A DNA stretch of 64,000 nucleotides from IMG/VR virus record IMGVR_UViG_3300021141_000706; one strand, 5' to 3'. Shown here piece after piece: positions 11,466 to 63,212 of the stretch (its first letter is position 1; every line of letters starts with the position of its first letter). The notes beneath the pieces were generated by a model. That model made no database searches and was not told the origin of the DNA. It saw only the letters and a list, made by a program, of their open reading frames with translations. The position numbers and the translations under genes are program-made. Origin of the DNA: a virus.

Positions 11466-11777
11466 ATGTTTCAAATAAATTCAATGCTATTAAGAAAAAT
11501 GGGGTGGACTGATCACAGTTCACCTACATTTAATAGTCCTAGATTTGATGATAATGACTTGGTTAGATTTTATATCAGACCAGAAACAATTTATTTTTTT
11601 ATAAAAGAACTTTCAGAAGAAGAAAAACAAATATCAAAAAATTCATATAAATTTGTAATTGGTAAAAGAGAAATTCAATTTGATTCTAATATAGAATTAA
11701 TTAGATTAATAATTGAAAATGAAGCTTGTAACGAAGATTATAAAAGGCACTTTAAATTAAATAAAATATTAAGATGA
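11466..11777 (+). CDS. Hypothetical protein with C-terminal tag (KRHFKLNKIL)
   Basis: ATG at 11466, right after the upstream stop, preferred over the track start at 11418. Confidence 0.65.
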   Translation: MFQINSMLLRKMGWTDHSSPTFNSPRFDDNDLVRFYIRPETIYFFIKELSEEEKQISKNSYKFVIGKREIQFDSNIELIRLIIENEACNEDYKRHFKLNKILR

Positions 11778-12376
11778 AAAAAGAAGTAAAAGTATTAGGT
11801 TTATCCTACAGTCAATCACAGTCAGGATCTTATGTTGTTGTTCTTTCTGAAAAGAAAGGCAAACGTAAATTACCTATCGTAATTAAACCATCAGACGCGC
11901 AACAAATCGCTTTGAAGATTGAAGGAGTTAAATCACCTAGACCTTTGACTCACGACTTGTTCAAAACAATCACAGATTCCTATCAAATTGATATTCAAGA
12001 AGTTTATATCTATGCTATCTTAGAAGGTATCTTCTATACTAAATTAATCACTTCAAATGGAGTTGAAGAAGCTGAGATTGATTGTACAGCGGGTGATGGT
12101 ATTGCTTTATCTATTGTTTATGGTTGTCCTTTATATGCTTCTAAGGAAGTTTTAGATTTATCTGGTGTTTACATCAATGACGATGGAAGTACTCTGGATA
12201 ATTCAAATATCGAAGACATTGATGATTACGAAGAAGACATTGAAGAAACTCCAAAAAGAGTTGTTTCTATTGAAGACTTAGAACATATGATTGAAGATGC
12301 TATCAGAAATGAAGAGTATGAAATTGCGGCTGAAATTCGTGATAGAATTGAAAAATTAAAAAAAGAAGGTAACTAA
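11774..12376 (+). CDS. Bifunctional nuclease family protein (DUF151/BFN) with C-terminal UVR domain
   Basis: LPIVI..AQQIA, PRPLTHDLF, EGIFY, DGIALS. UVR motif EEYEIAAEIRDRI. Bacteroidota-like N-terminus GLSYSQSQSGSY. Confidence 0.88.
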   Translation: MKKEVKVLGLSYSQSQSGSYVVVLSEKKGKRKLPIVIKPSDAQQIALKIEGVKSPRPLTHDLFKTITDSYQIDIQEVYIYAILEGIFYTKLITSNGVEEAEIDCTAGDGIALSIVYGCPLYASKEVLDLSGVYINDDGSTLDNSNIEDIDDYEEDIEETPKRVVSIEDLEHMIEDAIRNEEYEIAAEIRDRIEKLKKEGN

Positions 12377-12377
12377 T

Positions 12378-13214
12378 ATGGCATTATCGTATATCGGTGG
12401 TAAATCGAAAATCGGAACTTGGATTAGAAATTACATTCCAAACAATATTGAAACTTATGTAGAACCATTCTCAGGGATGTTCTGGGTATTCTTTAAGTTG
12501 AATACACCAAGTTTCAAAAATCTTAAAACTGTTGTTTACAATGACGTAAACCCGTTAAATGTAAACTTATATCTTTGTCTTAAAGATTATAAGAAGTTTT
12601 GGGATATGACTCAAAACACACCAATTGAAAACAAAGAGTTATTCAATAAATGTAAATCAGATTTATTTGATACTGAGTTTGTATTAGATATGAATAACCC
12701 TAACTTTGATATTGCTATCAAGTATGCTTATGTTTTAAGTCAAGTTTGGTCTGGTACCGATCCTAAAAAAGGTAACCTAATCTTAAAAGGTGGTTATGAA
12801 GGTAAAGATGGTGTTTATAAATCTAAGTTTGAAATCTTTAGAAGTAAACTAATTGATCCTAAATGGCACAGATACTTTGATGCTATTACGAACATTGAGA
12901 ATCTTGATTTTGAAGAAGTTATTAAGAAATATGATTCACCTACAACTTACTTCTATTGTGATCCACCATACTTCAAAACCGAAGACTATTATATCAATCA
13001 TGACTTTGGTATTCAAACACACGAAAGATTGGCTAATGCTTTGAAGGCTATGGAAGGTAGATTCTCATTAAGTTACTATCATTTTGATTTATTAGATGAT
13101 TGGTTTCCAAGAGAAGAATACACTTGGAAAGATAAAGAGTTTGCTAAGACCGCAATGGCTGTTCCTGGTAAGGCACAGACTAAAGGTACCGAGATTCTAA
13201 TAATGAACTACTAA
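12378..13214 (+). CDS. DNA adenine methyltransferase (Dam/D12 class)
   Basis: YIGGKS, YVEPFSG, YNDVN, FYCDPPY, EILIMNY. Confidence 0.9.
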   Translation: MALSYIGGKSKIGTWIRNYIPNNIETYVEPFSGMFWVFFKLNTPSFKNLKTVVYNDVNPLNVNLYLCLKDYKKFWDMTQNTPIENKELFNKCKSDLFDTEFVLDMNNPNFDIAIKYAYVLSQVWSGTDPKKGNLILKGGYEGKDGVYKSKFEIFRSKLIDPKWHRYFDAITNIENLDFEEVIKKYDSPTTYFYCDPPYFKTEDYYINHDFGIQTHERLANALKAMEGRFSLSYYHFDLLDDWFPREEYTWKDKEFAKTAMAVPGKAQTKGTEILIMNY

Positions 13215-13215
13215 G

Positions 13216-13554
13216 ATGATTATACTTACTTGTCAGTTAATCTTTGATAAAGGCGGTGAAAGAATACTTACCTCAGTTGTTTATGATGATATTACTGATA
13301 GATTTGTTAGAACGGCTCAAAAAATATCACCTGAATTAGTACAGGATTTAAATTCTAACAACCCTATGGTTGATATTAATGATGTTGTTAGTTTAGATTA
13401 TATTGATTATGTATTAGATGATGAAGAGTTAGAAGAAGTTATTGAAATGGTTGAAGATGGACCTGACAATGATATAATTAAAAAAGCAAAAGAATTTATT
13501 GTCTTCTATAAAAGAGATAAAAAAATAAAAAATATAATAGATGAAAAAGATTAA
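13216..13554 (+). CDS. Hypothetical protein with C-terminal tag (KRDKKIKNII)
   Basis: ORF in operon. Confidence 0.7.
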   Translation: MIILTCQLIFDKGGERILTSVVYDDITDRFVRTAQKISPELVQDLNSNNPMVDINDVVSLDYIDYVLDDEELEEVIEMVEDGPDNDIIKKAKEFIVFYKRDKKIKNIIDEKD

Positions 13555-14438: not shown

Positions 14439-14475
14439 AAACTTTAATAAATAAGATATAAAAATATCTTTATTA

Positions 14476-14706
14476 ATGAAGTATAAACCCGGAGATGTCG
14501 TAATAAAAACCACTGGTGGAAATAAAATGACTGTCTTTGATAAAGTTAATGATAGTTATAAATGTCTTTGGTTTGTTGAAAGTTCAATGAATGAATCTGA
14601 GTTCAAAGAAGAAGAGATAGTCTCTCTAAATGAATATAAACGATTTCTAAAGACAGAAGAAAGAGAAGATAAGATTAACCAACTTCTTAATTCTTTTACC
14701 AATTAA
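14476..14706 (+). CDS. YodC/DUF2158-like small protein with C-terminal tag (EREDKINQLL)
   Basis: KPGDVV.KTTGGNKMTV...CLWF....F.EEE. Confidence 0.65.
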   Translation: MKYKPGDVVIKTTGGNKMTVFDKVNDSYKCLWFVESSMNESEFKEEEIVSLNEYKRFLKTEEREDKINQLLNSFTN

Positions 14707-15457
14707 TATTTACTACTTCTGGATTTGAATAAAGTGATTTAGAATAATAGTTATCAAATATATTTCTATACTTTTGTTGCCAAATCTCTACATCTGGAAT
14801 ATTCATTTCAGTCATTTTTCTACCTAAACCAGTTGACATATAAGCTTGTAACTCATCTGGTAAAACGTGGTCAGCATAACCATATTCAGTAATACACTTA
14901 TACATCATATCTTTTACCGTAGGATCACACTCATCATTCATTTTAGACATTTCTGCCTTATATTCAGGTAAAGTAAACCACATAGCGTGAGCAAATTCGT
15001 GTTCAAGTAAGCTATTTGATAACTCATCAACACCTAAAAGATAGTAGTTATGATCACCTTCTATTTCTTTAATTGTATTAATAGTTGATAACATTAATTT
15101 ATCCCAGTTGTTTATTTCATCTTCTGGTATATTAAACATACACTCTTCTAATATATTTGAAGGAATGTTAAATCCAGACCAATCAGAACCATATGTAAAC
15201 TGTTGTTTACCATAGTGTTGTTTGTAGATATTTACAAAGTCTGTTACCTTAAATTGTTTACCAATAATTTCTTCAAATGAAGATTCATAAAACTCTTGAG
15301 GTCTCATAAACATTAATGCTCTAGTGTGAGAGTCTGGAGCCTTTATTGCCCAAATATGATCACCACAATGATACAATTCAATTTGAGCTGAAAAAAGATC
15401 TATCTCAGGTCTCATATTTAATTCTTCTAAGAACAGTTTATACTTTTTAATAATCAT
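14696..15457 (-). CDS. HExxH zinc-metallopeptidase-like protein with capsid-targeting-like leader
   Basis: LLEHEFAHA, downstream DELQAY, leader MIIKKYKLFLEE. Confidence 0.65.
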   Translation of the reverse strand: MIIKKYKLFLEELNMRPEIDLFSAQIELYHCGDHIWAIKAPDSHTRALMFMRPQEFYESSFEEIIGKQFKVTDFVNIYKQHYGKQQFTYGSDWSGFNIPSNILEECMFNIPEDEINNWDKLMLSTINTIKEIEGDHNYYLLGVDELSNSLLEHEFAHAMWFTLPEYKAEMSKMNDECDPTVKDMMYKCITEYGYADHVLPDELQAYMSTGLGRKMTEMNIPDVEIWQQKYRNIFDNYYSKSLYSNPEVVNINW

Positions 15458-16993: not shown

Positions 16994-17338
16994 ATGAAAC
17001 TCGATATCAATGAAGTTTACCACAATTATATAGTTAGAATAGTAATATTTGCTCTTTTTACTTTCAAAAGACAGATAAGACAACCAAATATTTATAAGAT
17101 TTCTGTTATAACTTTCACTATTAAAAGATTGCCTTGGAAAATTAATTTAGTAATTGATACTGGATTGAAATTAAATAAAGAAGATGAAAGAGAAATACTA
17201 CTTAATGAATTATTAGAGGGTATTGAAACAGATTATTTATCAACAGTTGTTGTTACATTTGTGACACCATTAAAAGAAGTTACGATGAGTATTGATTTAA
17301 GTGATGAAGAAAAGTATGAACACTATCTTTATTCTTAA
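16994..17338 (+). CDS. Hypothetical protein with an internal copy of the tag (EREILLNELL)
   Basis: 114 aa ORF divergent from 16977. Confidence 0.55.
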   Translation: MKLDINEVYHNYIVRIVIFALFTFKRQIRQPNIYKISVITFTIKRLPWKINLVIDTGLKLNKEDEREILLNELLEGIETDYLSTVVVTFVTPLKEVTMSIDLSDEEKYEHYLYS

Positions 17339-18706: not shown

Positions 18707-19561
18707 ATGAAAGGCTTTAGAAACTACAACAAAACAGAACTCTTCAACACAATCGATAAAATTTCCATTGAAAAGGTTGGAAGTCAGGTTGTCACTAAAT
18801 TTGACAATCGTGTTATAAACACATCAAATGTCTCTAATCGTTATGAGATTTTTGATATTGTTAAGTATCTAAAAGACAAGATTGAACTTATTGAGAAAAA
18901 CTTTACCATCACTAAATATAATTTTAGATTGACAAGAGGTCAACAATCACTTACACTTGTTTCCGATAGTGTTGAGATTGGTGGTGTTGAATTCCATAAA
19001 TCATTTTACATACTAAACTCAACTGATAAATCAAGACGTTTGAGTTTCAATGCTGGTCTGAAATCAGATAACTTCTATACCATCGGTATGAACAATGTTG
19101 GAATGAATAAGAAACACCTTACTGGTGTTACACAAGCCGCAGAAGATGCTTCAGTTGGTTTGAACGGTGAAACATTTGACGAACAAATTGAATCTTTACA
19201 ATCTTTAGTAGGACATCGTATACATTTTTCTAAACTTCGTCAGATTATTCTTGGTGATAAAGAAGAAATTCCACAAATCAATCACCGTAAGTTTGATGCG
19301 TTTAAGAACACAGTTCGTTATGCTAGTTCTGACCGTAAAATTAACTTAACATCTGAGCAACATAAGCAATTGTTTCAAAATTCTGAAGCAATGAAAGAAG
19401 TTGAGCACGATTTTTACTTAGATGCTTTCTGGTCTTTTCAAATGTATTTGAGATTGTTTAATAAGCAAGATTCTCACATTATTAAGAATGAGACAGAACG
19501 AATTATGAAAATGACTCAGTGGGCTGTTCGTAATTCAGTTTTGGAAGCTTTAGGAATTTAA
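18707..19561 (+). CDS. Early protein, possibly DUF932-like; C-terminal tag (VRNSVLEALGI)
   Basis: VSNRYEIFD and ILNSTDKSRRLSFNAG resemble the DUF932 S..Y and NSHDGS blocks (weak). Confidence 0.6.
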   Translation: MKGFRNYNKTELFNTIDKISIEKVGSQVVTKFDNRVINTSNVSNRYEIFDIVKYLKDKIELIEKNFTITKYNFRLTRGQQSLTLVSDSVEIGGVEFHKSFYILNSTDKSRRLSFNAGLKSDNFYTIGMNNVGMNKKHLTGVTQAAEDASVGLNGETFDEQIESLQSLVGHRIHFSKLRQIILGDKEEIPQINHRKFDAFKNTVRYASSDRKINLTSEQHKQLFQNSEAMKEVEHDFYLDAFWSFQMYLRLFNKQDSHIIKNETERIMKMTQWAVRNSVLEALGI

Positions 19562-21607: not shown

Positions 21608-22360
21608 ATGATAGAATTGCTTCGCAATCAACTAGACTGTTTTGAGGATATTAAATTTGAATTTGACCCGGTAGCTCACCGATACACATATGAAGGTGAA
21701 CCTTTTATTTCTGTAACAAGATTCATACAACAATTTCATAAACCGTTTGAACAAGACTACTGGTCTAAAAAGAAAGCCGAACAAGCCGGAGTTCCACAAG
21801 ATTGGATTTTAGCCGAGTGGAAAAAATTAAATGATTATGCCAACGAAGTTGGTACAGATACTCACCAATGGATTGAAGATTACTTTAATCAAATATGGAA
21901 ACCACTTCCAAATAACTTAGATGTTATACATCGCATAAATAAATTCAATAAGATTTATGCTAAACAATTATTCAAGTTAGAACCATTGAAGTTCGAGGTA
22001 AGAGTATTCTCACCAAAGTGGAAAATAGCTGGAATGATTGACTCTTTATTTTTATATAGAGGTAAGATTTACATTCTTGACTGGAAAACTAATAAAGATT
22101 TTACAGATGATAATCATCCTAAAGGAATCTATGAGAAATTACTTGCTCCTTTTCAAGACCATTTCAAAAATCATCTTAATGAATACTCAATACAACTTTC
22201 ACTTTACTCACTTATCTTAGAAGAGTGGGGCTTTCAAGTAGGTGGTGCTTACATTGTTCACATTGGACCAGGAGATGAAGATGCTGAATTATATAAAGTA
22301 GTTGATATGAGAGACAATCTAAAATTATTCTTAAATGGATCTATACAAGAGTCTAATTAA
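21608..22360 (+). CDS. PD-(D/E)XK RecB/Cas4-like exonuclease
   Basis: SVT, GTDTH, FEV, AGMID, ILDWKT, YSIQLSLY. Confidence 0.85.
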   Translation: MIELLRNQLDCFEDIKFEFDPVAHRYTYEGEPFISVTRFIQQFHKPFEQDYWSKKKAEQAGVPQDWILAEWKKLNDYANEVGTDTHQWIEDYFNQIWKPLPNNLDVIHRINKFNKIYAKQLFKLEPLKFEVRVFSPKWKIAGMIDSLFLYRGKIYILDWKTNKDFTDDNHPKGIYEKLLAPFQDHFKNHLNEYSIQLSLYSLILEEWGFQVGGAYIVHIGPGDEDAELYKVVDMRDNLKLFLNGSIQESN

Positions 22361-22640
22361 TGACGATGAATTCTTAGATTACTTCTGTGATGTCTTAGAG
22401 GATAACATTTCCGAAAAAGCAAAATATAAAGTTAGTATTGGTTTTAAGAAACATGACATGTCTATATTCTTTTTTATAGATGGTTCATCTATATTACAGG
22501 TTATGCCTGATAAGGATTTACAATACACATATGCTAATGTTCCTTCTTATGAAGATGAAATACAACATTCGATTAATATTATTGAGAAACAATATAAACG
22601 AGATAAAACGATAGAAGATATCATAAAAAAAGAGAGTTAA
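22335..22640 (+). CDS. Hypothetical protein with C-terminal tag (KRDKTIEDII)
   Basis: ORF overlaps the nuclease gene. Confidence 0.65.
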   Translation: MDLYKSLINDDEFLDYFCDVLEDNISEKAKYKVSIGFKKHDMSIFFFIDGSSILQVMPDKDLQYTYANVPSYEDEIQHSINIIEKQYKRDKTIEDIIKKES

Positions 22641-22678: not shown

Positions 22679-23167
22679 TTAGATTTGTGGACCTACAGCT
22701 TCACCTGAAACAGTTTCAACTTCAGTGTAGTACACACCTTTTTCTTTAATAACTTCTAAGATTTGCTCAGTAGCATCGATGTTATCTGTATTAAAAATAA
22801 CTTCCATTTTACCCATAACCAAATTGATTGAATTAGCAGTAGCCCATTCTTCAACAATAACTGCTAGTTGTTCAAAAACATTTGTATTTAATTCATCAGA
22901 CATTTCTTTAAGTTTTCTTTTAAAGTCTTGGTCTAATTTCATTAATTTGTCTTGGATTTGTCTAAATGCTTCCATATCTCTTTTTTGAGATGCTTCATCC
23001 AGTACTAAATCTGATTGAGATCTTTTAATGATAGTTTCCATTTCCTTTTTATCAGGATCTATACTTTCTAACATTTTTCTTTTTTCAGATTCGATTTGTT
23101 TGTAACCTTCAACATATGGTTGAAAGTTTCTTGTTAAAACTTCAAAGTCTATTACTCTTAATTCCAT
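22679..23167 (-). CDS. Skp/OmpH-family chaperone lacking a signal peptide
   Basis: RVIDFEVL..FQPY start, long coiled coil, A..NSINLVM, IDATEQILEVI end. Confidence 0.7.
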   Translation of the reverse strand: MELRVIDFEVLTRNFQPYVEGYKQIESEKRKMLESIDPDKKEMETIIKRSQSDLVLDEASQKRDMEAFRQIQDKLMKLDQDFKRKLKEMSDELNTNVFEQLAVIVEEWATANSINLVMGKMEVIFNTDNIDATEQILEVIKEKGVYYTEVETVSGEAVGPQI

Positions 23168-23783: not shown

Positions 23784-24224
23784 TTAATCTTCTACTCCGT
23801 CTTCATCATGACTAGAGTGTTGTATATGACAAACGATAGAAAACATAGAAGATTCAGCAAATGAAAACTCTGGTTCAAATCCTACTGTATATCCCATTGA
23901 GTTTAGTCTTTCTTTAATATCATCTAGTAATGAAAATAAATTAGTCATCTCTTTACTCATTGCTAGTAAATCGGTACAACCCCAAGTATTACCAGCGTCA
24001 ATCCAACCAAATGAATTTTGAGATTCTTTCTTTAAATCAAAGTGGTATTTACCATAGTTACCCAAAGTGTTTGAGCCGTTGCTATAAAACTTATCAATAT
24101 ATCCTAGGTCAAAAACTTCAATAAATATTTCCTTTATATCTTCTACACTTAGATATTCAACTTTAGATTCAAATGTTTTGAAGTCTAATATATTACGCTC
24201 CTGCTGCTGCTTCACCGCCACCAA
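23784..24224 (-). CDS. Hypothetical protein with leader-like ILDFKTFES (start uncertain)
   Basis: No ATG near the leader; the TTG/GTG starts overlap the upstream gene. Confidence 0.6.
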   Translation of the reverse strand: MVAVKQQQERNILDFKTFESKVEYLSVEDIKEIFIEVFDLGYIDKFYSNGSNTLGNYGKYHFDLKKESQNSFGWIDAGNTWGCTDLLAMSKEMTNLFSLLDDIKERLNSMGYTVGFEPEFSFAESSMFSIVCHIQHSSHDEDGVED

Positions 24225-25317
24225 TTATTTTATCAATCTCGGCAACTTTGTCTTTGTTAGCTTCATCGGAAATAAAGTCAACGAAAGTTCCTACTTTCTT
24301 TATGTTTTCCGGGTTCTTGGTTTTTAAATCACCTAGTTTTTTAACTAAGTCTTCTTGACCTTCTGCTTTTACTTCTTCAGTCTTCATAAGTATATCACCC
24401 ATTGTCTTAGTAAAATCAGCTCCTTCAAATGATACTTTATCTCCTTCTATTTTAGAAATCTTTTTAATACCAATTGCTTCAGCCTGAAGTTCTTTCATCT
24501 TACCTTCATTTGGTTTCTTCTTATCATCATCTGTTAAGGCATCCCATTTAGCTTGGTCAAACTTCTCTCTTTTATAAACTACATTATCTCCTACTTTATA
24601 TCCACCTTCTGGACCAGCCTCAGGTACCGGTATTTTTCTAGATTCTAAATTTTTATTAACCTCTTCCTCTGTAATAGCATCTGCGAATTTATCAAGTTGA
24701 GGAAAAAGTGTTTTCTCACACCAGTTAACAATAGCATCTTTTTTCTTTTTACCATCAGTAGCAGCAGTTAATAACTTTTTAACATCTGGTAAGTGAGTCA
24801 TATCTTTCAAATCAATATTAATTTTCTTAGGATCTACTTTACCATCTGTTGATGCTCCGAATTTATATTGAACAATAGCCTTGGTTCTAATTGTGTTAAA
24901 GAAATATTCAAATGTTGCGTACTGAGAGCTTGCTGGTTCACCTTCTTGTGGTGGATAAGCTTTCTTCAAAGTTTCGTAAAGTGGAGCTAATCCTTGTTTA
25001 CCTAAAACTCCAGTTTCTGGATTTAAGATACTATCAACTAATGTTAATGCGTCTTGATCATTTGCCTCTGGTTTCTTTTTGAACTCATCCATAACATTCT
25101 TGAATAAGTAGTTATTATCGGCTGGGTTAAACGGATTATCAGCAATCCAATCTTTAACCTCTGTTGTATCAGGATCTTCTCCTAATTTTTTCAACTCCTC
25201 CATTGCTTTAGTCCACAAACCTTTAAAAAAGTTTATAACACCACCTAACAACTCTTCATTAATAGGTTCTAAATTTTTAGATGTTCTGTGTGATTCAAAT
25301 GTTTTTACATATTTCAT
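24193..25317 (-). CDS. Putative internal virion protein (MKYVKTFES leader)
   Basis: Leader, second site INEE followed by an amphipathic helix, AATATATA at 25342-25349. Confidence 0.7.
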   Translation of the reverse strand: MKYVKTFESHRTSKNLEPINEELLGGVINFFKGLWTKAMEELKKLGEDPDTTEVKDWIADNPFNPADNNYLFKNVMDEFKKKPEANDQDALTLVDSILNPETGVLGKQGLAPLYETLKKAYPPQEGEPASSQYATFEYFFNTIRTKAIVQYKFGASTDGKVDPKKINIDLKDMTHLPDVKKLLTAATDGKKKKDAIVNWCEKTLFPQLDKFADAITEEEVNKNLESRKIPVPEAGPEGGYKVGDNVVYKREKFDQAKWDALTDDDKKKPNEGKMKELQAEAIGIKKISKIEGDKVSFEGADFTKTMGDILMKTEEVKAEGQEDLVKKLGDLKTKNPENIKKVGTFVDFISDEANKDKVAEIDKIIGGGEAAAGA

Positions 25318-25419
25318 AATATACAATTTATTTCTATGATTTATATATTATTTTTTCATTTTCATTTTATTAAACCAAATACCTAAATTTTCATATAAAC
25401 TTCAAATAATTAAATTATA

Positions 25420-27806: not shown

Positions 27807-28169
27807 ATGAACATTTCCAACCACGAGAAGAAAAGACGACAACATGAGAAAGAGTTGAAGTCTTTTAGAAATAAAATGGGTAAACATATTGTTTGGTTTG
27901 ATTCTTTATCAAAGACCAAGCAATATGATTTGCTATTTGGTTGGAAAAGAGAGAAGAATTCTAACAAGTTACAAGCACCGGAAGAGAAAACAATCCTGAG
28001 ACCTGCTTATGTTGGTTATAGAAGAAAGATGGTAAAACAAAAAATTACTTCTTATCCATCATCACTTAAACACTTTATAGTTAAGTGTAGAGTGAATCCT
28101 CAATTTCAACCACATAGAACAAGAGTTAGGGATGCGGCTATTGATATACTTTTAAATAGTAAAAAATAA
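27807..28169 (+). CDS. Basic hypothetical protein with C-terminal tag (VRDAAIDILL)
   Basis: ATG at 27807 lies downstream of the promoter. Confidence 0.65.
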   Translation: MNISNHEKKRRQHEKELKSFRNKMGKHIVWFDSLSKTKQYDLLFGWKREKNSNKLQAPEEKTILRPAYVGYRRKMVKQKITSYPSSLKHFIVKCRVNPQFQPHRTRVRDAAIDILLNSKK

Positions 28170-29147: not shown

Positions 29148-29476
29148 TGTTAGACGATACAGATAATTATATAAAAGATAATCTTCAAAATATCATTGAT
29201 GGTAAGTTTGATGATAAGTTTTCAAAAGAACAATTAAAGATGATGTTAGAAATGTCATTTTTATATAATCATATTAGTGTTGAAAATGATTCAGTTATAT
29301 TTGAGTATGATAGTCAGGAATTAAAAATCTCAGGTATTAATGACCTTGTACATTCAATACCAACCGGTATAGATTATAAAAATCAAATATTTTCAACGAT
29401 TAAAAGTGATGTAGTTTTCAAATCGGCTCTTACTCAATTTTTGAGAGATAAAAAAATTAATGAAATATTAGAATGA
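29147..29476 (+). CDS. Hypothetical protein with C-terminal tag (LRDKKINEILE)
   Basis: ORF in operon. Confidence 0.65.
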   Translation: MLDDTDNYIKDNLQNIIDGKFDDKFSKEQLKMMLEMSFLYNHISVENDSVIFEYDSQELKISGINDLVHSIPTGIDYKNQIFSTIKSDVVFKSALTQFLRDKKINEILE

Positions 29477-32021: not shown

Positions 32022-32278
32022 AAGTAAAGTGTTTGAATATCAGTAAATACAATCAATATGATAGACTACCTCTAACAGTAGGTAAAGTATATGATGTGAT
32101 AGAGGTTACACATATTCCTTTCAATTCCAGGAGGTATGATGATTATACAGGACCTTTCTATAAACTAGTTAATGATAATGGTGAATTATCAGGTTACACA
32201 GATGAATGTGTTAGAGTTCTTACTTTAGATGAAAAGAGAGAATTAAAAATTGAAGATTTACTTAATGGAGTTCTATAA
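32018..32278 (+). CDS. Small beta-barrel-like phage protein with C-terminal tag (KRELKIEDLL)
   Basis: MKVKC..LTVGKVYDV, ATGA overlap with folD. Confidence 0.7.
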   Translation: MKVKCLNISKYNQYDRLPLTVGKVYDVIEVTHIPFNSRRYDDYTGPFYKLVNDNGELSGYTDECVRVLTLDEKRELKIEDLLNGVL

Positions 32279-32558
32279 CTTATTTAAGATAGTATTTTCA
32301 ATTGTAATTTACATTATACTATCACCAGTCATTATTCCTATTTTATTAATCAATGAAGTAAGATGGAATAAAGGTGTTTGTAGAAAGTGTAACTCTGATA
32401 GATATTATTTAGATTTCAGACCAGATAAGTTTATTAATCATCACTATGTTTGTAAGAAGTGTGGATATAGATTCTTATCATCAAGACATAGAATTCAACC
32501 AAGTGATAACCAATTAAAAACTCTTATAAGAGGTAATAAGATAAATAAAATATTATAA
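32265..32558 (+). CDS. Membrane-anchored Zn-ribbon protein with C-terminal tag (IRGNKINKIL)
   Basis: TM helix, CRKC...CKKC. Confidence 0.65.
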   Translation: MEFYNLFKIVFSIVIYIILSPVIIPILLINEVRWNKGVCRKCNSDRYYLDFRPDKFINHHYVCKKCGYRFLSSRHRIQPSDNQLKTLIRGNKINKIL

Positions 32559-32559: not shown

Positions 32560-32847
32560 ATGATTTATCCATCAAGAATAAAAGGTCAGGAATATCCTCT
32601 TAGTAAGGGGGATATTGTTGTTTGTATAACTGAGAGTTTTCAAGAGTTCACTTATGGTAAGCAATATCAACTTTATTGTGATTTCGATTTAAACGTTTCG
32701 GTGACACACCGTTATTCAACTCTTCCAATTAACTCTGACTTAGGAAATCAACCTTTACCTGCTTATTACTCACCAACTGGTTATTACTTTCTACCTCTTC
32801 ATATTTGGAGAGAATTGAAAATAAACAAAGTATTGGAAAATGAATAG
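32560..32847 (+). CDS. Small phage protein with C-terminal tag (WRELKINKVL)
   Basis: KGDIVVC..FTYGKQY, similar to ORF 32018. Confidence 0.68.
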   Translation: MIYPSRIKGQEYPLSKGDIVVCITESFQEFTYGKQYQLYCDFDLNVSVTHRYSTLPINSDLGNQPLPAYYSPTGYYFLPLHIWRELKINKVLENE

Positions 32848-33094
32848 AATATTGAAAATTGGAGACAGAGTTAGGAATGTAAGAGTAGGTGTTTATAAAG
32901 ATGAACCTATTGTTATAGTTGGTGAATCTGACAATAACAATTCACTTAAAATTAAATTTAACAGATATCATATTAAATATCTAAATGTTTTTACTGTTAG
33001 TGGTGATAATATGATGTCTTGGGTAGATGAAAGTGATATAGTTTTAGATATAGAATATTATAGAAACGAAAAATTAAATAAGATATTAGAATGA
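32840..33094 (+). CDS. Small SH3/KOW-like protein with C-terminal tag (YRNEKLNKIL)
   Basis: KIGDRV...WVDESDI. Confidence 0.68.
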   Translation: MNRILKIGDRVRNVRVGVYKDEPIVIVGESDNNNSLKIKFNRYHIKYLNVFTVSGDNMMSWVDESDIVLDIEYYRNEKLNKILE

Positions 33095-34315: not shown

Positions 34316-34574
34316 TATGATTGAAAAGGGATTAGTCAGCTATGTCAAAGGTGAAAAGGTTGTACTATTCCGTAGAAAATCAAATGGTTATCCAAAAGGA
34401 ATTAAAGACGGTGTTGAATATACTATAAGAGGAATCTATGGTGAAGGTATTGAAGTTGCCTTAAATTCTTCTAATGGTATTGGTTTGTTACAATCAATAA
34501 AAGTACACAGAAGTTATATGATTCCAAAATATGCTCTACGAGATATCAATCTTAAAAAACTTCTTAATAGTTAA
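34287..34574 (+). CDS. Small protein with C-terminal tag (LRDINLKKLL)
   Basis: ORF in operon; start uncertain. Confidence 0.6.
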   Translation: MTSHEWRITDMIEKGLVSYVKGEKVVLFRRKSNGYPKGIKDGVEYTIRGIYGEGIEVALNSSNGIGLLQSIKVHRSYMIPKYALRDINLKKLLNS

Positions 34575-52784: not shown

Positions 52785-53870
52785 TTGAAAAATAAATCTA
52801 AATACATCGGTCCAACTCTAAATCTTAATGTAAATAAAGATGATGCTGAGTTAAATGACTTTTTATATTGTTGGGAGCAATTTGAATCTCGACCTAATAA
52901 AATAGTTATACATAATACATATTCAACAAAATTATTTGTTGATGTATTAAACACATACATAATTGAAAGAAACTTCTTTACTGAGGTTTTACCAGATGAA
53001 GAAAAATTCATCATCAATGATAAAATGTTTGTTAAATTAAGTGAAGATACTTATTGTTCTTATATCATAATTGATAGAAAACATGAAAACTCTATGGTTA
53101 ATGAAGTAACCTTCTTTTATAAATCAGAAGATAACTTTGAAACTATACAAGAAATAGTTGAAAAATTAAATGATTGTATTGTTAATTTTGAAGAAGATGA
53201 ATCTAATAAGTTAAGCACCATAGCTCTCAGTTCTACAAGTGGTTTAGAAATTGAACCAATTGATATGTCTGAGTTTGATATTGATAACTTCTCACTTTAC
53301 TATGCTAAACAAACTGGAAAAGATATTAATAAACTTATAAAAGAAATTAAGAAGTCTAATAAAGGTTTAAGTATTCTTCACGGTGAAAGAGGTACTGGTA
53401 AAACATCTGTTATCAACTACATAGCTTCTAAATTAGACAGAACTGTTATCTTCATACCTAACAATATGATCGAACACACTATAAACAATCCAGAGTTCAG
53501 AAAGTTCTTAAAAAGATATAGTAAGCCAGTTATTATTATAGATGATTGTGAAATGCTTTTTCACGAATACTTTACTAAATCTAATATGTTCGCAAATAAT
53601 CTTTTACAAATGGTTGATGGTTTTTTATCAGATTCAATGGAAGTTAATATAATTGCTATATTTAATGTTGAAGATGAAGATGAAATAGATCATTCACTCT
53701 TAGAATCAAATAACTTAATCAGAGTAATTGACTTTGAATATTTATCACCAATTGAATCGGTAGAGTTATCTGAATATCTAGGTAATAATAAACAATATAA
53801 AAACAAAACTACGGTTTTAGATATAATAAGGAATAAGAAACCTAAAGAACGTAAAGAGTTTGGTTTCTAA
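52785..53870 (+). CDS. AAA+ ATPase
   Basis: HGERGTGKT, IIIDDCE, NLLQMVDGFL; TTG start. Confidence 0.82.
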   Translation: MKNKSKYIGPTLNLNVNKDDAELNDFLYCWEQFESRPNKIVIHNTYSTKLFVDVLNTYIIERNFFTEVLPDEEKFIINDKMFVKLSEDTYCSYIIIDRKHENSMVNEVTFFYKSEDNFETIQEIVEKLNDCIVNFEEDESNKLSTIALSSTSGLEIEPIDMSEFDIDNFSLYYAKQTGKDINKLIKEIKKSNKGLSILHGERGTGKTSVINYIASKLDRTVIFIPNNMIEHTINNPEFRKFLKRYSKPVIIIDDCEMLFHEYFTKSNMFANNLLQMVDGFLSDSMEVNIIAIFNVEDEDEIDHSLLESNNLIRVIDFEYLSPIESVELSEYLGNNKQYKNKTTVLDIIRNKKPKERKEFGF

Positions 53871-53886
53871 AAAAAATATATATACT

Positions 53887-54219
53887 ATGATTTCGGAACT
53901 AAAAGACGATGAGATACTTGAATTTCTAATGACTTCAGAGTTTGAGGATGATTATTCTCCAACTGAGTTAAAGTATTTATTAATTAAATGGAGATATTTT
54001 TATAGACTTAAACAAGGAAACTTAGAAAGAAAAACAGTTGACTTTGAAGGTCAAATACAAAATTTGGAAAATAAAATTAAAGGTCAAGAAAAAGAAAAAT
54101 TGAATTTACAAGTTCAATTAGCTGATAAGCAAAACGTCATTGATAGTATGAAAAACAGAAATCTTACACTCAAGGAAAGATGGTCTGGAAAAATTATTCT
54201 TAAAGAAAATGAAAATTAA
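53887..54219 (+). CDS. Coiled-coil hypothetical protein
   Basis: ATG at 53887 just after AATATATA (53875-53882). Confidence 0.68.
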   Translation: MISELKDDEILEFLMTSEFEDDYSPTELKYLLIKWRYFYRLKQGNLERKTVDFEGQIQNLENKIKGQEKEKLNLQVQLADKQNVIDSMKNRNLTLKERWSGKIILKENEN

Positions 54220-55333
54220 TGAATTTAAAAAATTAGAAGAAAAAATAAATGGTCAGAATTTTAACCAAGGATATAAAAATATCAATGTGGTTATGTTATT
54301 ACTTTCTATTTTTGGACACTTTGCTTCTATATTTTTAGCTTACTTTGCTTTATCAAAAGTATTAGGTGGTGTTATTGAAAATAATCCTGTTGCTGTATTT
54401 ATAGCTTCTATTGTTATGTTAAGTGGTCTTGAATTACTTAAAAGAGATATCTTTGATAAATTTAGTATTCAATATTTAAAGGTCAAAGCATTCACAAAAG
54501 ATGTTTTACCTTTATTTATATTAAGTTTAGCAATTATTGGTACATCATTTTATGCTTCTATTAATGGTGCTAAAGAATTCTCTTCTAAAGAAGCTGTAAT
54601 TGAACAAACTCAAAAAGAAAATGTTAATCAATTCTCTGATAGTTTAACTAAAGTTTATAATGTTAAAATTACTGATATTGAGGCTGAGATTAAAGTAAAC
54701 AAAGATAAGCTTGATGCTAAAGATAAAGAACAAACTGAACTTGAAGCAATTCAACCACCAACTCGTTCTCAAAAAAGTAGAATAAAAGACTTAAAAGATG
54801 AGAAAACAACTTTAAGATCAGATATTACTAAATTAGAAGCAGATGAGACTACTGTTAAGACTGAACTTGCTACTAAAATTAAAGAACACGAAACAACTGT
54901 TGGAGCTGAGACAGAAGATAAAAAGAAAGATAATAGTTCAAACTCATTGGCTTTTATCTTAATCTCAACTTTAATTGAGTTAGTTATCTTAGCTGGTGTT
55001 TATTTTAACGAATACTATAAATTCCGTTCTTATAAAGAATTTAGAGATAGACTTGAAAAAGATCCTAACTATCAAAAATGGATGCTTTACGATCAGATGC
55101 TAAATATTATTTACACAGAAGATACTAAAATGAATCAAAAGTTACCTGCTAATAAAGGTATTGCTGATATGTGTAAAGTAAATGATATTATTGTTATGCC
55201 TAAAGATGTAACAGACTTCTTAAAAGTTATGAATGGGTTAGGTATTATCAAAACATCAGGCTCAAGTAGATATGTTAACAAACAAAGAGATTTAGCTTTT
55301 GAGATTCTAAGAAAACAATTTAATATTCAATAA
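54209..55333 (+). CDS. Multi-pass membrane protein with a long coiled coil
   Basis: Three N-terminal TMs, ~120-aa coiled coil, fourth TM, soluble tail. Confidence 0.75.
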   Translation: MKINEFKKLEEKINGQNFNQGYKNINVVMLLLSIFGHFASIFLAYFALSKVLGGVIENNPVAVFIASIVMLSGLELLKRDIFDKFSIQYLKVKAFTKDVLPLFILSLAIIGTSFYASINGAKEFSSKEAVIEQTQKENVNQFSDSLTKVYNVKITDIEAEIKVNKDKLDAKDKEQTELEAIQPPTRSQKSRIKDLKDEKTTLRSDITKLEADETTVKTELATKIKEHETTVGAETEDKKKDNSSNSLAFILISTLIELVILAGVYFNEYYKFRSYKEFRDRLEKDPNYQKWMLYDQMLNIIYTEDTKMNQKLPANKGIADMCKVNDIIVMPKDVTDFLKVMNGLGIIKTSGSSRYVNKQRDLAFEILRKQFNIQ

Positions 55334-59204: not shown

Positions 59205-59221
59205 TAGAATACTTTATAAAT

Positions 59222-59571: not shown

Positions 59572-59643
59572 TTAATAAATTTTTTAGTGATTATTTATAC
59601 AAATATATTAAATTATTTTTAATACCAAAATTATTAAGCTCCT

Positions 59644-59671
59644 AAAAAGAGTTCTTATTGAACTCTTTTTT
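59644..59671 (-). terminator. Intrinsic terminator
   Basis: aaaaagagttc-ttatt-gaactcttttt. Confidence 0.72.
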
Positions 59672-59674
59672 ATT

Positions 59675-60064
59675 TTAAATAAGTTTATCTAAAGAATTTC
59701 TTCTACGATATTTTTGTTTAGACTTTTCTACTTCATCTTCAATCATGTTGTTACCATATCCCATGTAGTTTCCATAATAAAGAAGTGTTGCGTCTCCTAA
59801 ATTCTCTTTAATACAATCATCACAGATAGCAATAATAAATTGGTCACCATCGTGTGTTGATCCATAACCGGCATCAATGATATGAATAATACCATTATCA
59901 ATCATTTCATTATTAACATTAACTAAACTACCATCTGGTCTTTTAGAATCTTTCCAAAGAATATCTTCTTCGTGTTGAGGTGGTGAATCTTCGGTTGAGA
60001 TTTTAGAACTAACAGGTGGTGTGTTAGGAATTACATTATTTTTCTTACAACAAATACAATACAT
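59675..60064 (-). CDS. Zn-binding hypothetical protein with C-terminal tag (RRNSLDKLI)
   Basis: CICC...GYGSTHDG...ICDDC. Confidence 0.72.
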   Translation of the reverse strand: MYCICCKKNNVIPNTPPVSSKISTEDSPPQHEEDILWKDSKRPDGSLVNVNNEMIDNGIIHIIDAGYGSTHDGDQFIIAICDDCIKENLGDATLLYYGNYMGYGNNMIEDEVEKSKQKYRRRNSLDKLI

Positions 60065-60210
60065 TATAAATTAAATATTTTTTTAATTTTCATTTTTCTT
60101 ATGAGTGCCTTTCTAATATTAACTCCAATATTATATGCTAATTGAGTTCTTGGATATAAACTAGCAAAGTCTAAATTTACTATAATCGGTGAAGTCTCTA
60201 TAGGTTCCAT
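60064..60210 (-). CDS. 48-aa micro-ORF not in the track: PolB motif-A-like peptide plus C-terminal tag
   Basis: MEPIETSPIIVNLDFASLYPRTQLAYNIGVNIRKALIRKMKIKKIFNL; TAATG coupling to the next gene. Confidence 0.65.
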   Translation of the reverse strand: MEPIETSPIIVNLDFASLYPRTQLAYNIGVNIRKALIRKMKIKKIFNL

Positions 60211-60323
60211 ATTCTTTTAATTTTTTCTTTTCTTTTTTCTTTTCTTTCCAATCTTTTAGCAAGTTGTAGTATTAAAGTAGTTTGATAACTCATAGACTCA
60301 CCACCTTTTATCATTGAATTCAT
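60198..60323 (-). CDS. 41-aa micro-ORF not in the track, essentially a helix plus the C-terminal tag
   Basis: MNSMIKGGESMSYQTTLILQLAKRLERKEKRKEKIKRIWNL; ATGA coupling to the upstream NTase gene (alternative starts 60314, 60293). Confidence 0.6.
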   Translation of the reverse strand: MNSMIKGGESMSYQTTLILQLAKRLERKEKRKEKIKRIWNL

Positions 60324-60925
60324 TTCTCAGCTACTTTTCTAAAGTCTGTTAAAATTTCATTTCTAAGTTCTCTGAATTCAGTATCTAATTCTTCCCAAGT
60401 CCATCTTTTACTTTTAATTTTATTCCAGATAAAGTTGGCACAAGAGAAGTCAGTAATTCTACCAGAGGTTGCCACTTGAGTAGCAAACATAGGAATTCTT
60501 AAAGAGTGAAATAAAGATTTAACTCCAATGTAATAATCATCTTGTTCTAACTTTTTCTTCGACTTCACCCAACTATTAGAACTAATATGTGATGTAGCGT
60601 GTCTCAGTTTAGCCAGGTTCAACTTTAAATCGTATTTGATAGTCTCTTTCAACTTAGCCCAATCAGGTGCCCAAATACACTCTAAATTGTTTATACGATG
60701 CCATTCTAAGTCAGCCTTAAACTTATCTGGAGTATAAACGTGAATGTTATATAAACCATTCTTAATTTCAATTACCTCAACAGAGTTATTAGCAACCATA
60801 ATGATATCCCAATCTGAGTCAGAGTTGGAAGTGGAATAAATTTGACTACCAAAAATATAAACATTGAACACACGACTTGTGTGTATTCCAGATGCTTTAA
60901 TTATTGTTTCTAATGTTGGTATCAT
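60320..60925 (-). CDS. Pol-beta superfamily nucleotidyltransferase with a helical C-domain
   Basis: YIFGSQIY.T...SDWDII, SWVKSKKKL, KSLFHSLRI. Confidence 0.8.
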   Translation of the reverse strand: MIPTLETIIKASGIHTSRVFNVYIFGSQIYSTSNSDSDWDIIMVANNSVEVIEIKNGLYNIHVYTPDKFKADLEWHRINNLECIWAPDWAKLKETIKYDLKLNLAKLRHATSHISSNSWVKSKKKLEQDDYYIGVKSLFHSLRIPMFATQVATSGRITDFSCANFIWNKIKSKRWTWEELDTEFRELRNEILTDFRKVAEK

Positions 60926-61143
60926 ATTCCTAACTCTTTTAATTTCTCTTTTCTAATTTTATCTAAACTGATTAAGTTTGATTCATGAACTCCAATTTTA
61001 GAACCTAAATCATTTATCAATTCAATGTAAACACCGTCAGAAGAGTAAACCACTAGACCATTCCAATCTCCTTCATATACTTTATTTTCAGTCATGTCAG
61101 ATCTTTTATGCCAATCACTTCTTGGTTTATATACCCATTTCAT
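60922..61143 (-). CDS. Small protein with C-terminal tag (IRKEKLKELGI)
   Basis: Coupled ORF; MTENKVY..LINDLG similar to 32018. Confidence 0.7.
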   Translation of the reverse strand: MKWVYKPRSDWHKRSDMTENKVYEGDWNGLVVYSSDGVYIELINDLGSKIGVHESNLISLDKIRKEKLKELGI

Positions 61144-61406
61144 ATTCCTAATTGTTCTAAAGTGTTATCTAATTTCAATTCTTTATTCCATTCTTCTAAA
61201 TCTTTCAAAGAATACTCACGACTAATCCATTTACCACCATATCCACTACTATCATACACTGCCTTTTCGGTACTATACCACACAACGGCTTTAGCTCTAT
61301 CATATTCAACATACAATCCATTAAACGGTGTTTCTACACTGATGAGTAAACCTCTACCATCTTTTGTATTTACTTCTTGAAATATTCTTAAAAAACTTGG
61401 TTTCAT
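61140..61406 (-). CDS. Small protein with tag variant (KLDNTLEQLGI)
   Basis: Coupled ORF. Confidence 0.68.
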   Translation of the reverse strand: MKPSFLRIFQEVNTKDGRGLLISVETPFNGLYVEYDRAKAVVWYSTEKAVYDSSGYGGKWISREYSLKDLEEWNKELKLDNTLEQLGI

Positions 61407-61942
61407 ATTCCTATCTTACTTAATATCTTACTTCTAATGTTTGCCTTTGTGTCCCAATAATCTTTCGTATCAAGATAATATAAATTCATACTACCTTTTG
61501 TTTGTGAGTTAAATGTTGGTTCTATAAATCTTATCTTCCAATCACCATCATCTTCATCTACATTTAGAATAACTAACTCTGTTCCTTTCGGAACTTTCCA
61601 CCAGTTTGGTTTCTGACTTTGGTCAGAAGTGTTAATGAACTTCCTAAACTGACCATCATAGTAAAAGTCTTTCTTAACAATAACAATCTCACCAGCCTCA
61701 GGAACATCATACTTACTTCTATCAAACTTAACTTTATCATTCATTATATTCATTCTAAAGATAACAAATAAACAAACAATAGTTATTGCTGATATACTCA
61801 CGAAAAGACCTGTAACGCCACCAAAATGTAAAGGTAGTGTAAATAAAAGAACAGATAACAACAATAAACTAAGTTTAATCATTTCATTATTATCTAACCA
61901 ACGATTGAATCTATAAAAACTATTTTTTAACATACTAACCAT
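61403..61942 (-). CDS. Two-TM membrane protein with C-terminal tag (IRSKILSKIGI)
   Basis: Two TMs followed by a beta-rich domain. Confidence 0.7.
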   Translation of the reverse strand: MVSMLKNSFYRFNRWLDNNEMIKLSLLLLSVLLFTLPLHFGGVTGLFVSISAITIVCLFVIFRMNIMNDKVKFDRSKYDVPEAGEIVIVKKDFYYDGQFRKFINTSDQSQKPNWWKVPKGTELVILNVDEDDGDWKIRFIEPTFNSQTKGSMNLYYLDTKDYWDTKANIRSKILSKIGI

Positions 61943-62268
61943 ACACTTTCTTTTGGTGTTTTATCTAAAACTTCATTAATTTTAATTTCTCTTTTGTAAG
62001 CAATCATCTTACTTAAAGTTTCTCTCAAGAAACTTAAAGTCTTTTGCTTTCTCATATCACTTCTATAGTGAGTGTGTTCAATTTCATCAATATGATAATT
62101 CATCATTACAATATCCACCGTCATGTCTTGGTAATAGTTATTAGAATGCCTCCAATAAATAATCTCACCATCTTTTAAGATGATATAATCTTTCTTCTCA
62201 TTGAAAGGACATTGAAGTTCTTCAATGATATGATAATATTCTCCGTTACTATTTACTACAAATCTCAT
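61927..62268 (-). CDS. Hypothetical protein with C-terminal tag (KREIKINEVL)
   Basis: Coupled ORF. Confidence 0.68.
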   Translation of the reverse strand: MRFVVNSNGEYYHIIEELQCPFNEKKDYIILKDGEIIYWRHSNNYYQDMTVDIVMMNYHIDEIEHTHYRSDMRKQKTLSFLRETLSKMIAYKREIKINEVLDKTPKESVWLVC

Positions 62269-63212
62269 GAGCCAAACAAACTATTTAATAAATCATCACG
62301 ATGAAAAGCCATATCCTCAAAATGTGAATAAGGGAAATAATTACTACGATTTAATTCATCAGTAATGTAAACCTGTAAATATCCGTTTGAGTTCAAACTA
62401 CTACTTCTAACCTCATATGATTTGTTAGCAACTAAAGCAATTTTATTACCATAAGGAACATCTTTCAAACACTTTAACATAGTTCCGTTAGGAACATTCA
62501 TTGAGCTTTTAATTTTATTTGAAATAGATGAAATAATATACTCTGAATTTAATTTACGAAAGTCAATTTTAGTTTCTTCCATAATCTCTACAAAACTACC
62601 TAATAGTTTCCTAGTAATATCAATCTCACGCTTAGGAACACTATCAAAGTTTAATTCTTGAACCGTATACCACCTAATACTATTAAATAGTTGTGATTGG
62701 TTAACAAATTTCTCATAGAAATATTGTTTTGAATCATCATAAACCTCAACATTGTTTTGAATAATGTAATTCAAAAGAGGAATAATACAAGATTTCAAAC
62801 CATCAATACTTTCACCACCTCTGCGACCGTAACTCATACGACCTCTTCTTGTTAAAGCGGGTTTAGAAACCCAACGACCATTTAATAAACGATCGAATTG
62901 AGGACCATCCATTAGAATCTCATTGAATTGTCTTTGGGTTCTATTCATAAAAAACTTTTTCAATCTAACATTTTGAGTAGACTCAGCAATCAATGCCTTC
63001 GATTTTCGCCAAGTCATTCCTTCTATAACAGGATTAAATTTATCATTATATTTCATGAAATCCCAAAACTCAGCAAAGTATTGAAGTCCAATATTTCTCA
63101 TAACATTGGAATTAACCTCACCTCTCTCATATTCGGAGATAATTGGAAACAATTCTTTAGCTTCTGCGTAAGTTGCTAAGTTTTTTTTAATTAGATCGTA
63201 GTTTAACTTCAT
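62265..63212 (-). CDS. Hypothetical protein; C-terminal small barrel plus tag (HRDDLLNSLF)
   Basis: 315 aa; last ~70 aa (LKC..LVANKSYEV..ITDE..FPYSHFE) resemble ORFs 32018 and 32560. Confidence 0.72.
   Translation of the reverse strand: MKLNYDLIKKNLATYAEAKELFPIISEYERGEVNSNVMRNIGLQYFAEFWDFMKYNDKFNPVIEGMTWRKSKALIAESTQNVRLKKFFMNRTQRQFNEILMDGPQFDRLLNGRWVSKPALTRRGRMSYGRRGGESIDGLKSCIIPLLNYIIQNNVEVYDDSKQYFYEKFVNQSQLFNSIRWYTVQELNFDSVPKREIDITRKLLGSFVEIMEETKIDFRKLNSEYIISSISNKIKSSMNVPNGTMLKCLKDVPYGNKIALVANKSYEVRSSSLNSNGYLQVYITDELNRSNYFPYSHFEDMAFHRDDLLNSLFGS

Follow-up and report, generated by a model that had tools for sequence, protein, structure and literature searches.

Short peptides shared by unrelated proteins are known from several systems. 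The capsid-targeting sequence (CTS) of phage T4, carried by IPI-III and Alt, is an address peptide of ∼10 residues common to unrelated phage proteins. Encapsulin cargo peptides and the tail of the HK97 protease are C-terminal on unrelated cargo and are read there by one shell protein. AAA+ degrons and adaptor tails (the LAA-COOH end of ssrA, basic tails of the MuA type, and the ClpX-binding tail of SspB) are likewise short and C-terminal, and bring diverse proteins to one unfoldase. The PIP box, the ESCRT-III MIM1 motif (Vps4 MIT), and LxxLL are helical docking motifs of eukaryotic and archaeal hubs, the first two found at the extreme C terminus of many unrelated proteins. In phage SPO1, the early adaptor-like protein gp53 binds host ClpC (PMC6873191). 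Here we describe a C-terminal tag in IMG/VR virus record IMGVR_UViG_3300021141_000706, a stretch of 64,000 nucleotides referred to below as the window, and in its relatives. In the window's clade the consensus of the tag is R-[DEN]-x-K-[IL]-x-x-[IL]-[LG]. The feature is real, selected at the protein level, and proteome-wide. We propose, with a probability of about 0.55, that it is a portable docking motif for a shared receptor, carried by early or middle small proteins. Full-text literature searches found no published description of the tag.

A C-terminal tag on sequence-unrelated phage proteins

The window, with a G+C content of ∼30%, encodes a 573-aa protein (38982-40703) that shares 68-71% amino acid identity with its counterparts in LR745206.1 and LR756502.1, two uncultured huge phages of 635 and 642 kb, respectively. 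The same protein is 33-39% identical to those of LR756504, LR756501/3, and LR756500, and ∼30% identical to those of the Prevotella Lak phages. By sequence, these identities place the window as a piece of a huge phage from the LR745206.1/LR756502.1 group. For genome-wide counts all of LR745206.1 (995 open reading frames, ORFs) stands in for the window's genome, and 400 kb each of LR756504.1 and LR756501.1 were examined.

The original prediction, made from the letters of the window, listed 19 C-terminal peptides and two non-terminal copies of one motif. All 19 are present; the coordinates attached to them are starts or ends of genes rather than positions of the motif. Both non-terminal copies are present as well, REILLNELL lying 40 aa from the end of ORF 16994-17338 and RDINLDILM occupying residues 12-20 of ORF 30487-31128. 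We searched 99 greedy-called ORFs (20,669 aa) with a strict pattern, R..K[IL]..[ILV][LIGFW], and a loose one, R...[IL]..[ILV][LIGFW], taking matches within 8 aa of the end as C-terminal. The strict pattern has 12 matches, 11 of them C-terminal, and the loose pattern 23, of which 17 are C-terminal. Shuffling that keeps the composition of each last 20 aa gives an expectation of 0.09 strict and 0.63 loose C-terminal matches, and none of 2000 shuffles reaches the observed counts. This rules out the K/I/N composition artefact that the prediction had itself named as its refutation. Two further matches were set aside: RKDELQSLL, 10 aa from the end of ORF 45357-45989, is absent from the original list, follows a start resembling the N-terminal leader described below, and is probably a chance match, and the internal RNAALQILL of the MoxR-type protein 9329-10468 is read as part of the ATPase fold.

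In LR745206.1, 110 of 131 strict and 167 of 266 loose matches are C-terminal, and the distance from tag to C terminus peaks at 1-2 aa. The tagged ORFs thus number 167 of 995, about one in six (∼17% of the proteome), comprising 24-33% of all ORFs of 60-160 aa and ∼1% of those above 300 aa. A profile of the window tails, scanned on the relatives as had been suggested, matches 36 times in LR745206.1, 32 times in LR756502.1, and 10 times in LR756504.1, with no matches in LR756501, LR756500, or Lak-B5. Searching all phage records by tblastn with a 21-aa tail gave no match, the query being too short.

The LR745206.1 logo reads [S/T](-5) K(-4) [S/Q](-3) E(-2) h(-1) R1 [D/E/N]2 x K4 [I/L]5 [N/K/D]6 x [I/L]8 [L/G/I/F]9, with K(-4), R1, position 5, and positions 8/9 on one helical stripe. 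Position 2 is D, E, or N in 82% of tags, and the mean net charge is +1.5. One sub-variant, about 18% of tags, ends in L-G-I-COOH and often occurs in gene arrays, including seven consecutive LGI-ending genes (LR745206.1 374589-376409). A second is cationic, R-K-x-K-I-x-x-I-F, and is carried by proteins of 41-83 aa, some of which end in FGG.

Once the tails are cut off, BLAST finds no similarity among the 19 bodies of the window, and the 167 tagged bodies of LR745206.1 fall into 165 BLAST components. Iterated profile searches with 270 tagged bodies from four genomes yield 237 clusters, 216 of them singletons, such that neither approach finds the whole-protein homology of a single paralogous family. 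Pfam searches (E ≤ 0.001) on 150 tagged proteins match only 8 families, including metallophosphatase, HD, UVR, DUF6501, lectin, and Gp23 fragments. The UVR motif was rejected as an identity for the tag: one of the 150 proteins matches PF02151, and when the tag logo is set by eye against the UVR consensus, a helical hairpin with ...A-A-x-[LI]-R-D-x-[IL]-x-x-L in heptad register, its apolar positions following R-D are one residue out of step. A likeness to the first helix of SAP/HeH domains is off by one residue in register and was dropped. ClpP itself does not count as tagged, since the matching peptide, RYGMIDEIL (LR745206.1 123556-124221), is ClpP's native C-terminal helix and the Pfam match a false positive.

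Structure predictions extend this picture. ORF 14476-14706 contains a DUF2158 β-barrel at residues 6-47, the Pfam model stopping before the tail, and AlphaFold2 predicts five strands and a 25-residue helix (residues 51-75) that contains the tag (mean predicted local distance difference test score, pLDDT, 87). Its nearest solved folds are PWWP/Royal-type barrels and chains of eukaryotic/archaeal 60S/50S ribosomal subunits. In the AlphaFold2 model of ORF 32250-32558, a transmembrane (TM) helix at residues 3-32 and a linker at 73-82 with pLDDT below 50 precede a separate terminal helix, residues 81-96, bearing the tag. The tag is therefore, in these models, a terminal helix on at least two different folds, which together with the clustering of the bodies upholds its predicted portability over sequence-unrelated proteins.

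Codons at R1, K4, I/L5, I/L8, and L9 track genome usage in LR745206.1, with I and L swapping freely (AGA 0.70 in the tag versus 0.76 in the genome and AGG 0.17 versus 0.12; ATA/ATT/ATC 0.49/0.41/0.09 versus 0.52/0.38/0.09). Codons ending in A are slightly overrepresented at positions 8-9 (ATA 0.75 versus 0.52). The next gene is convergent after 37 of 166 tagged genes, and the tail is therefore not the initiation region of a following gene; where the neighbor is co-directional, 74% of tagged genes abut or overlap it. Ordinary codon usage and the 22% of tagged genes without a co-directional downstream gene bear out the claim that conservation is at the protein, not the DNA, level. Orthologs behave accordingly. 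Pairs between the window and LR745206.1 comprise seven in which both members are tagged and 46 in which neither is, with no real discordance. The pattern persists at 27-35% body identity while non-motif tail residues differ; RELKINKVL (32560-32847), for instance, is paired with RDKQLTEII at 30% identity overall and 35% over the body. In metagenomic orthologs, R, D, K, and N of the 14476-14706 tail are invariant (20 orthologs), as is R-x-N-K-I-x-K-I of the 32250-32558 tail (nine orthologs), and the tail beyond the motif differs both in length and in residues.

De novo enrichment of gapped triplets in C termini reveals lineage-specific versions of the tag. The enriched triplets are R..KI and RD.K in LR745206.1, RK..I and R...I..L in LR756504.1 (69 tails versus 28 body matches), and R..L...M and RT...D in LR756501.1. 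The LR756504 logo is R-K-x-[I/K]-I-x-x-L-[L/I], mostly at the very end, and that of LR756501 is E-[F/W]-K-N-h-K-R-T-K-L-[I/M]-D-x-M-L-N. These tags again sit on mostly unrelated bodies (50/60 components in LR756504 and 17/20 in LR756501), and all three versions share K(-4), R1, and positions 5, 8, and 9. This concerted drift of the consensus within each phage lineage suggests one co-evolving receptor, since a shared reader that co-evolves with its tags would be expected to move dozens of unrelated proteins of a lineage to a new consensus together; the same is expected of tails that read each other.

The tagged genes also differ in class from those with an N-terminal leader. About 70 LR745206.1 proteins open with a leader resembling the T4 CTS (MKYLKTFE..., MIKKYNQFLE...), and in the window such genes lie at 1041, 14696-15457(-), 24193-25326(-), 43606-43851(-), 46047, and 58674. 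Leader and C-terminal tag, which had not been seen together in the window, are essentially exclusive: among 182 tagged and 70 leader proteins of LR745206.1 one carries both, against ∼13 expected. Leader genes are tightly linked to an upstream [T]AATATATA box, and AATATATA occurs within 70 nt upstream of 76% of LR745206.1 units that begin with a leader gene, 4% of those that begin with a tagged gene, and 27% of all units. As [A/T]ATATATA is also found upstream of the Gp23-type capsid gene (200752-202434) and of large structural genes next to it, the box is probably the late promoter. The Bacteroidota-type -7 box TAnnTTTG, in turn, precedes 29% of tag-first units versus 13% of all units. By this motif evidence the tag appears to mark non-late (early or middle) genes, in agreement with the proposal that tagged genes fall mostly in host-sigma or middle-type operons. 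They are scattered over LR745206.1 and are fewest near the capsid-gene region (0, 0, and 1 in the bins at 140-200 kb).

Candidate readers and alternative explanations

In the docking model, the tail would be a short linear motif forming one C-terminal α-helix, K(-4) ... R1-[D/E/N]-x-K-[I/L]5-x-x-[I/L]8-[L/G/I/F]9, 0-2 residues before the stop, and would be kept on hundreds of sequence-unrelated, mostly 60-160 aa, non-late proteins. The variable body would provide an individual activity, and the constant tail would direct all of these proteins to a common place or machine through a single receptor, which would read every tail and co-evolve with it. The sequence pattern argues for the existence of such a receptor, which, because it would co-evolve with the tag, is most likely phage-encoded.

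The leading candidate for the machine, still a tentative one, is the phage's own Clp system, that is, a ClpC-like protein without an N-domain together with ClpP behind an early-type promoter. LR745206.1 encodes a 701-aa ClpC-like unfoldase (423224-425329) comprising D1 (AAA), an AAA_lid_9/UVR-type M-domain, D2 (AAA_2), D2-small, and a GVGF ClpP-docking loop. The N-terminal ∼40 residues form an acidic, low-complexity stretch, and no Clp_N domain is present. Of two ClpP genes (123556-124221 and 75119-75859), a TAnnTTTG box lies 12 nt ahead of the former, and the gene after it encodes a 210-aa protein ending RDYKIQKIME. The ClpC-like gene is found in LR756502 (81%), LR756504 (44%), and LR756501 (48%, the M-domain stretch unaligned) and is absent from LR756500 and Lak-B5. 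Its distribution is thus that of the tag, with four of four tag-bearing and none of two tagless genomes tested. If this machine is the reader, the tail could serve as a degron that keeps early proteins short-lived, or as a handle for delivering whatever the body has captured. Co-folding was run for one pair, the LR745206.1 ClpC-like protein and the DUF2158-tag protein of the window; its score of 0.00 carries no weight either way.

Other machines were considered. The window encodes a divergent AAA ATPase (52785-53870) with an unassigned N-domain of ∼180 aa and a C-terminal FGF (IGF in a relative), followed by a coiled-coil protein (53860-54219) and a coiled-coil membrane protein (54209-55333); a late-type box lies upstream of its LR745206.1 ortholog. 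Homologs occur in tag-bearing genomes, with the distribution of the ClpC-like gene, but only the ATPase core is conserved and there is no PDB or subfamily match, and we rejected it as the hub. The FGF/IGF end is suggestive only. Searches for a gp45-type or DnaN-type clamp in five relatives gave no match to PF00712 or to PF02916, but the PF02916 control was silent everywhere, so these negatives do not establish that a clamp is absent.

Several points weigh against the docking model and its Clp version. No receptor was found for the tag, co-folding having covered one candidate pair. The phyletic match of the ClpC-like gene involves six related genomes only, and any clade-specific gene would fit. 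The N-domain of Clp proteins is usually the part that binds adaptors, and the phage ClpC-like protein has none. Some 170 different clients would need either a very abundant stoichiometric hub or transient contact. Known Clp degrons are unstructured and lie at the very end, whereas the tag is predicted to be helical and lies 0-8 residues from it. Promoter classes were inferred from motifs rather than expression. Finally, some bodies may share folds, such as small SH3-like barrels, beyond the reach of sequence methods, so that part of the set may descend from one very ancient ancestor.

Best surviving among the alternatives, though unlikely, is that the tails bind one another, acting as sticker helices that bundle small proteins into hetero-oligomers or a common assembly such as a condensate, with no separate receptor to dock on. 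Mutual partners would also drift in concert within a lineage; sub-variants do cluster in arrays, as in the LGI run above, and there is an ORF of 41 aa that is nearly all tag. Yet each protein has a single tail and hence no multivalency, and a helix with about four apolar positions and the invariant arginine on the same stripe is poorly suited to a stable bundle. Its mean hydrophobic moment, 0.24, is the same as that of random internal 15-mers, such that the description of the helix as amphipathic in the original prediction holds weakly at best.

A more elaborate form of the docking model, which we consider quite unlikely, makes the tag the constant handle of a phage-encoded adaptor library. 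Rapidly evolving bait bodies would bind host factors, for example immune sensors, and the helix would hand bait and prey to an early-expressed phage ClpC-like/ClpP protease or another machine for destruction or sequestration; counted among the baits would be the mini-genes derived from pieces of the phage's major capsid protein and of DNA polymerase motif A. If true, this would be a natural counter-defence resembling a proteolysis-targeting chimera (PROTAC), with a lineage-specific handle-receptor code.

We regard as very unlikely that the helix is an intrinsic stabilizer, capping tiny proteins and shielding their C termini from host tail-recognizing proteases with no partner involved. Enrichment on proteins of 60-160 aa would suit such a cap, as would the barrel protein, in which the helix directly continues the fold as in PWWP/Royal domains; but a generic cap needs no invariant arginine, fixed spacing, or lineage-wide change of consensus, and the helix of the zinc-ribbon protein is detached by a low-confidence linker.

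More doubtful again is a virion packaging signal that docks cargo on the capsid interior or scaffold. Encapsulin cargo likewise carries a C-terminal tag on unrelated proteins, a huge capsid has room for many of them, and exclusivity with the N-terminal leader would fit two alternative signals for one destination. The scarcity of the late box before tag-first units (4%, as against 76% for leader-first units) argues against packaging, as the tag would then mark non-late genes. In addition, 170 different cargo species are implausible, and the motif is unlike the G/S/L-rich encapsulin peptides.

Highly improbable is membrane targeting of the MinD/FtsA kind, with the helix holding early proteins at the inner membrane. 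Among the tiny proteins, the cationic subclass (RKxKIxxIF, with FGG at some ends) does resemble the MinD tail, but the strongly amphipathic cationic helix of that class is not what the tags form: MinD/FtsA tails have moments of 0.41-0.61, just 16% of tags exceed the HeliQuest lipid-binding threshold (D > 1.34), and position 2 is predominantly D/E/N. The abutting genes and the ATA excess notwithstanding, a nucleic-acid signal (initiation or reinitiation, promoter, recombination site) or composition artefact is largely refuted by the convergent neighbors, the otherwise genome-like R, I, L, and G codons, the shuffles (0.09 versus 11 observed), and orthologs that keep the pattern as DNA and other residues change.

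Huge phages consist largely of orphan genes that offer no way in for study. The tag, distinct from the capsid-type leader, sorts these orphans into functional classes from sequence alone (∼17% of the proteome and ∼30% of small proteins), and under the docking model finding its reader would make ∼170 proteins per genome placeable. The lineage-specific versions offer a built-in specificity test. If the Clp machine of the phage proves to be the reader, the tag would belong to a proteolysis or targeting system that a virus runs in bacteria. Engineering could also make use of the motif as a portable tag.

Tagged sites in the window and neighboring observations

Table 1. C-terminal tags of the window, with the ORFs that carry them (orthologs are those of LR745206.1 unless stated)
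Tag	Coordinates	Strand	Location	ORF	Remarks
RHFKLNKIL	11745..11771	+	1 aa before stop	11418/11466-11777 (119 aa)	Ortholog RHFKLNKLL
RDKKIKNII	13513..13539	+	4 aa before stop	13216-13554 (112 aa)	
REDKINQLL	14662..14688	+	5 aa before stop	14476-14706 (76 aa)	Downstream gene convergent
RNSVLEALG(I)	19529..19555	+	End of ORF	18707-19561 (284 aa)	LGI-type variant; ortholog RNSVLESLGI
RDKTIEDII	22599..22625	+	4 aa before stop	22335-22640 (101 aa)	Downstream gene convergent
RDAAIDILL	28128..28154	+	4 aa before stop	27792/27807-28169 (125 aa)	Ortholog REAAIDLLL
RDKKINEIL	29444..29470	+	1 aa before stop	29147-29476 (109 aa)	
RELKIEDLL	32237..32263	+	4 aa before stop	31991/32018-32278 (95 aa)	
RGNKINKIL	32529..32555	+	Very C terminus	32250/32265-32558	TM helix, CxxC...CxxC zinc ribbon, linker, tag
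RELKINKVL	32809..32835	+	3 aa before stop	32560-32847 (95 aa)	Ortholog RDKQLTEII
RNEKLNKIL	33062..33088	+	1 aa before stop	32840-33094 (84 aa)	
RDINLKKLL	34539..34565	+	2 aa before stop	34251/34287-34574 (107 aa)	
RRNSLDKLI	59678..59704	-	Very C terminus	59675-60064 (129 aa)	Ortholog RRKNLDDLI
RKMKIKKIF	60073..60099	-		60064-60210 (48 aa)	Cationic; mini-protein, body with family-B polymerase motif-A-like DFASLYP
RKEKIKRIW	60207..60233	-		60198-60323 (41 aa)	Cationic; barely more than helix and tag
RKEKLKELG(I)	60928..60954	-	End of ORF	60922-61143 (73 aa)	LGI-type
RSKILSKIG(I)	61409..61435	-	End of ORF	61403-61942 (179 aa)	LGI-type; ortholog RNNILNKLGI, 27% body identity
REIKINEVL	61966..61992	-	12 aa before stop	61927-62268 (113 aa)	Most internal accepted tag
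RDDLLNSLF	62274..62300	-	2 aa before stop	62265-63212 (315 aa)	LR756502.1 fragment ends RGSLLDSLLGD

Proteins with the cationic tail RKxKIxxIF (41-83 aa) carry fragments of the phage's own essential proteins. Such mini-proteins are encoded at 60064-60210 and 60198-60323 of the window and at 83154-83393, 255010-255237, 222206-222391, and 440158-440361 of LR745206.1. The first has a Pfam DNA_pol_B match below the cut-off (E = 0.022), and its ortholog is LR745206.1 83154-83393. Two mini-proteins with polymerase-B motif A (DFASLYP) share 90-91% identity over 10-11 aa with the apparently split family-B polymerase 232803-234344, and three align with separate regions of the Gp23 capsid profile at 16-21 bits, below the 24.4 cut-off. 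Possibly these mini-proteins are decoy or bait peptides. The polymerase ORF 232803-234344 of LR745206.1 ends shortly past motif A (profile positions 21-151 of 453), and the gene appears to be split.

Among the tagged orphans, the segment 10814-14131 of the window encodes an RNase H-like protein, a bifunctional-nuclease + UVR protein, a D12 adenine methyltransferase, and an MGS/AICARFT-IMPCHase N-terminal fragment. The product of 22679-23167(-) is an OmpH/Skp-family protein (Pfam E = 2.9e-12) whose start shows no obvious signal peptide; the protein may act as a holdase in the cytoplasm, unless the match reflects coiled-coil character only. ORF 33091-33960 gave no tblastn match.

Other short motifs recur in the relatives. 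In 400 kb of LR756501.1, [L/I]-D-P-Y-G-E-E-x-W-[D/E/N/S] occurs in 45 copies on unrelated proteins, nine of them 4-5 residues from the C terminus and the rest N-terminal or in linkers; it is absent from the window's clade. In LR756500.1, two small ORFs at 8054 and 17138 end in NADDFGFL(DN), an acidic-aromatic sequence reminiscent of SSB/clamp-binding tails.

Comparison with known systems

Among address peptides, the T4 CTS is N-terminal, ends in an L/I-x-E prohead-protease site, and is found on late genes, whereas the tag is C-terminal, 0-8 aa from the end, and, judging by promoter motifs, on genes that are not expressed late with the head genes. The encapsulin and HK97 peptides are of another sequence type, and their cargo is co-expressed with the shell. 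In contrast, tagged genes avoid the late box and are scattered rather than co-located with a shell gene, and the number of clients is far larger.

The PIP box, Q-x-x-[LIM]-x-x-[FY]-[FY], has the same spacing as the tag core, [DEN]2-x-x-[IL]5-x-x-[IL]8-[LF]9, but the tag logo lacks the glutamine and the aromatic pair and has an additional invariant arginine. The poxvirus ankyrin/PRANC (F-box-like) proteins are likewise a viral multigene set that joins a variable binder to a constant C-terminal degradation handle. There, the handle is a folded domain on homologous ankyrin bodies directed at host SCF, in contrast to a motif of 9-14 residues on unrelated bodies.

Relative to AAA+ degrons, the tag differs in being helical, in its invariant arginine, and in not being fixed at the carboxylate: in place of the unstructured apolar tail at a free carboxylate that characterizes ssrA, a helix is predicted and 0-8 variable residues follow. 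SPO1 gp53 documents a phage early protein acting on ClpC; here the phages themselves encode both ClpP and a ClpC-like protein that keeps the UVR-type M-domain and has no N-domain.

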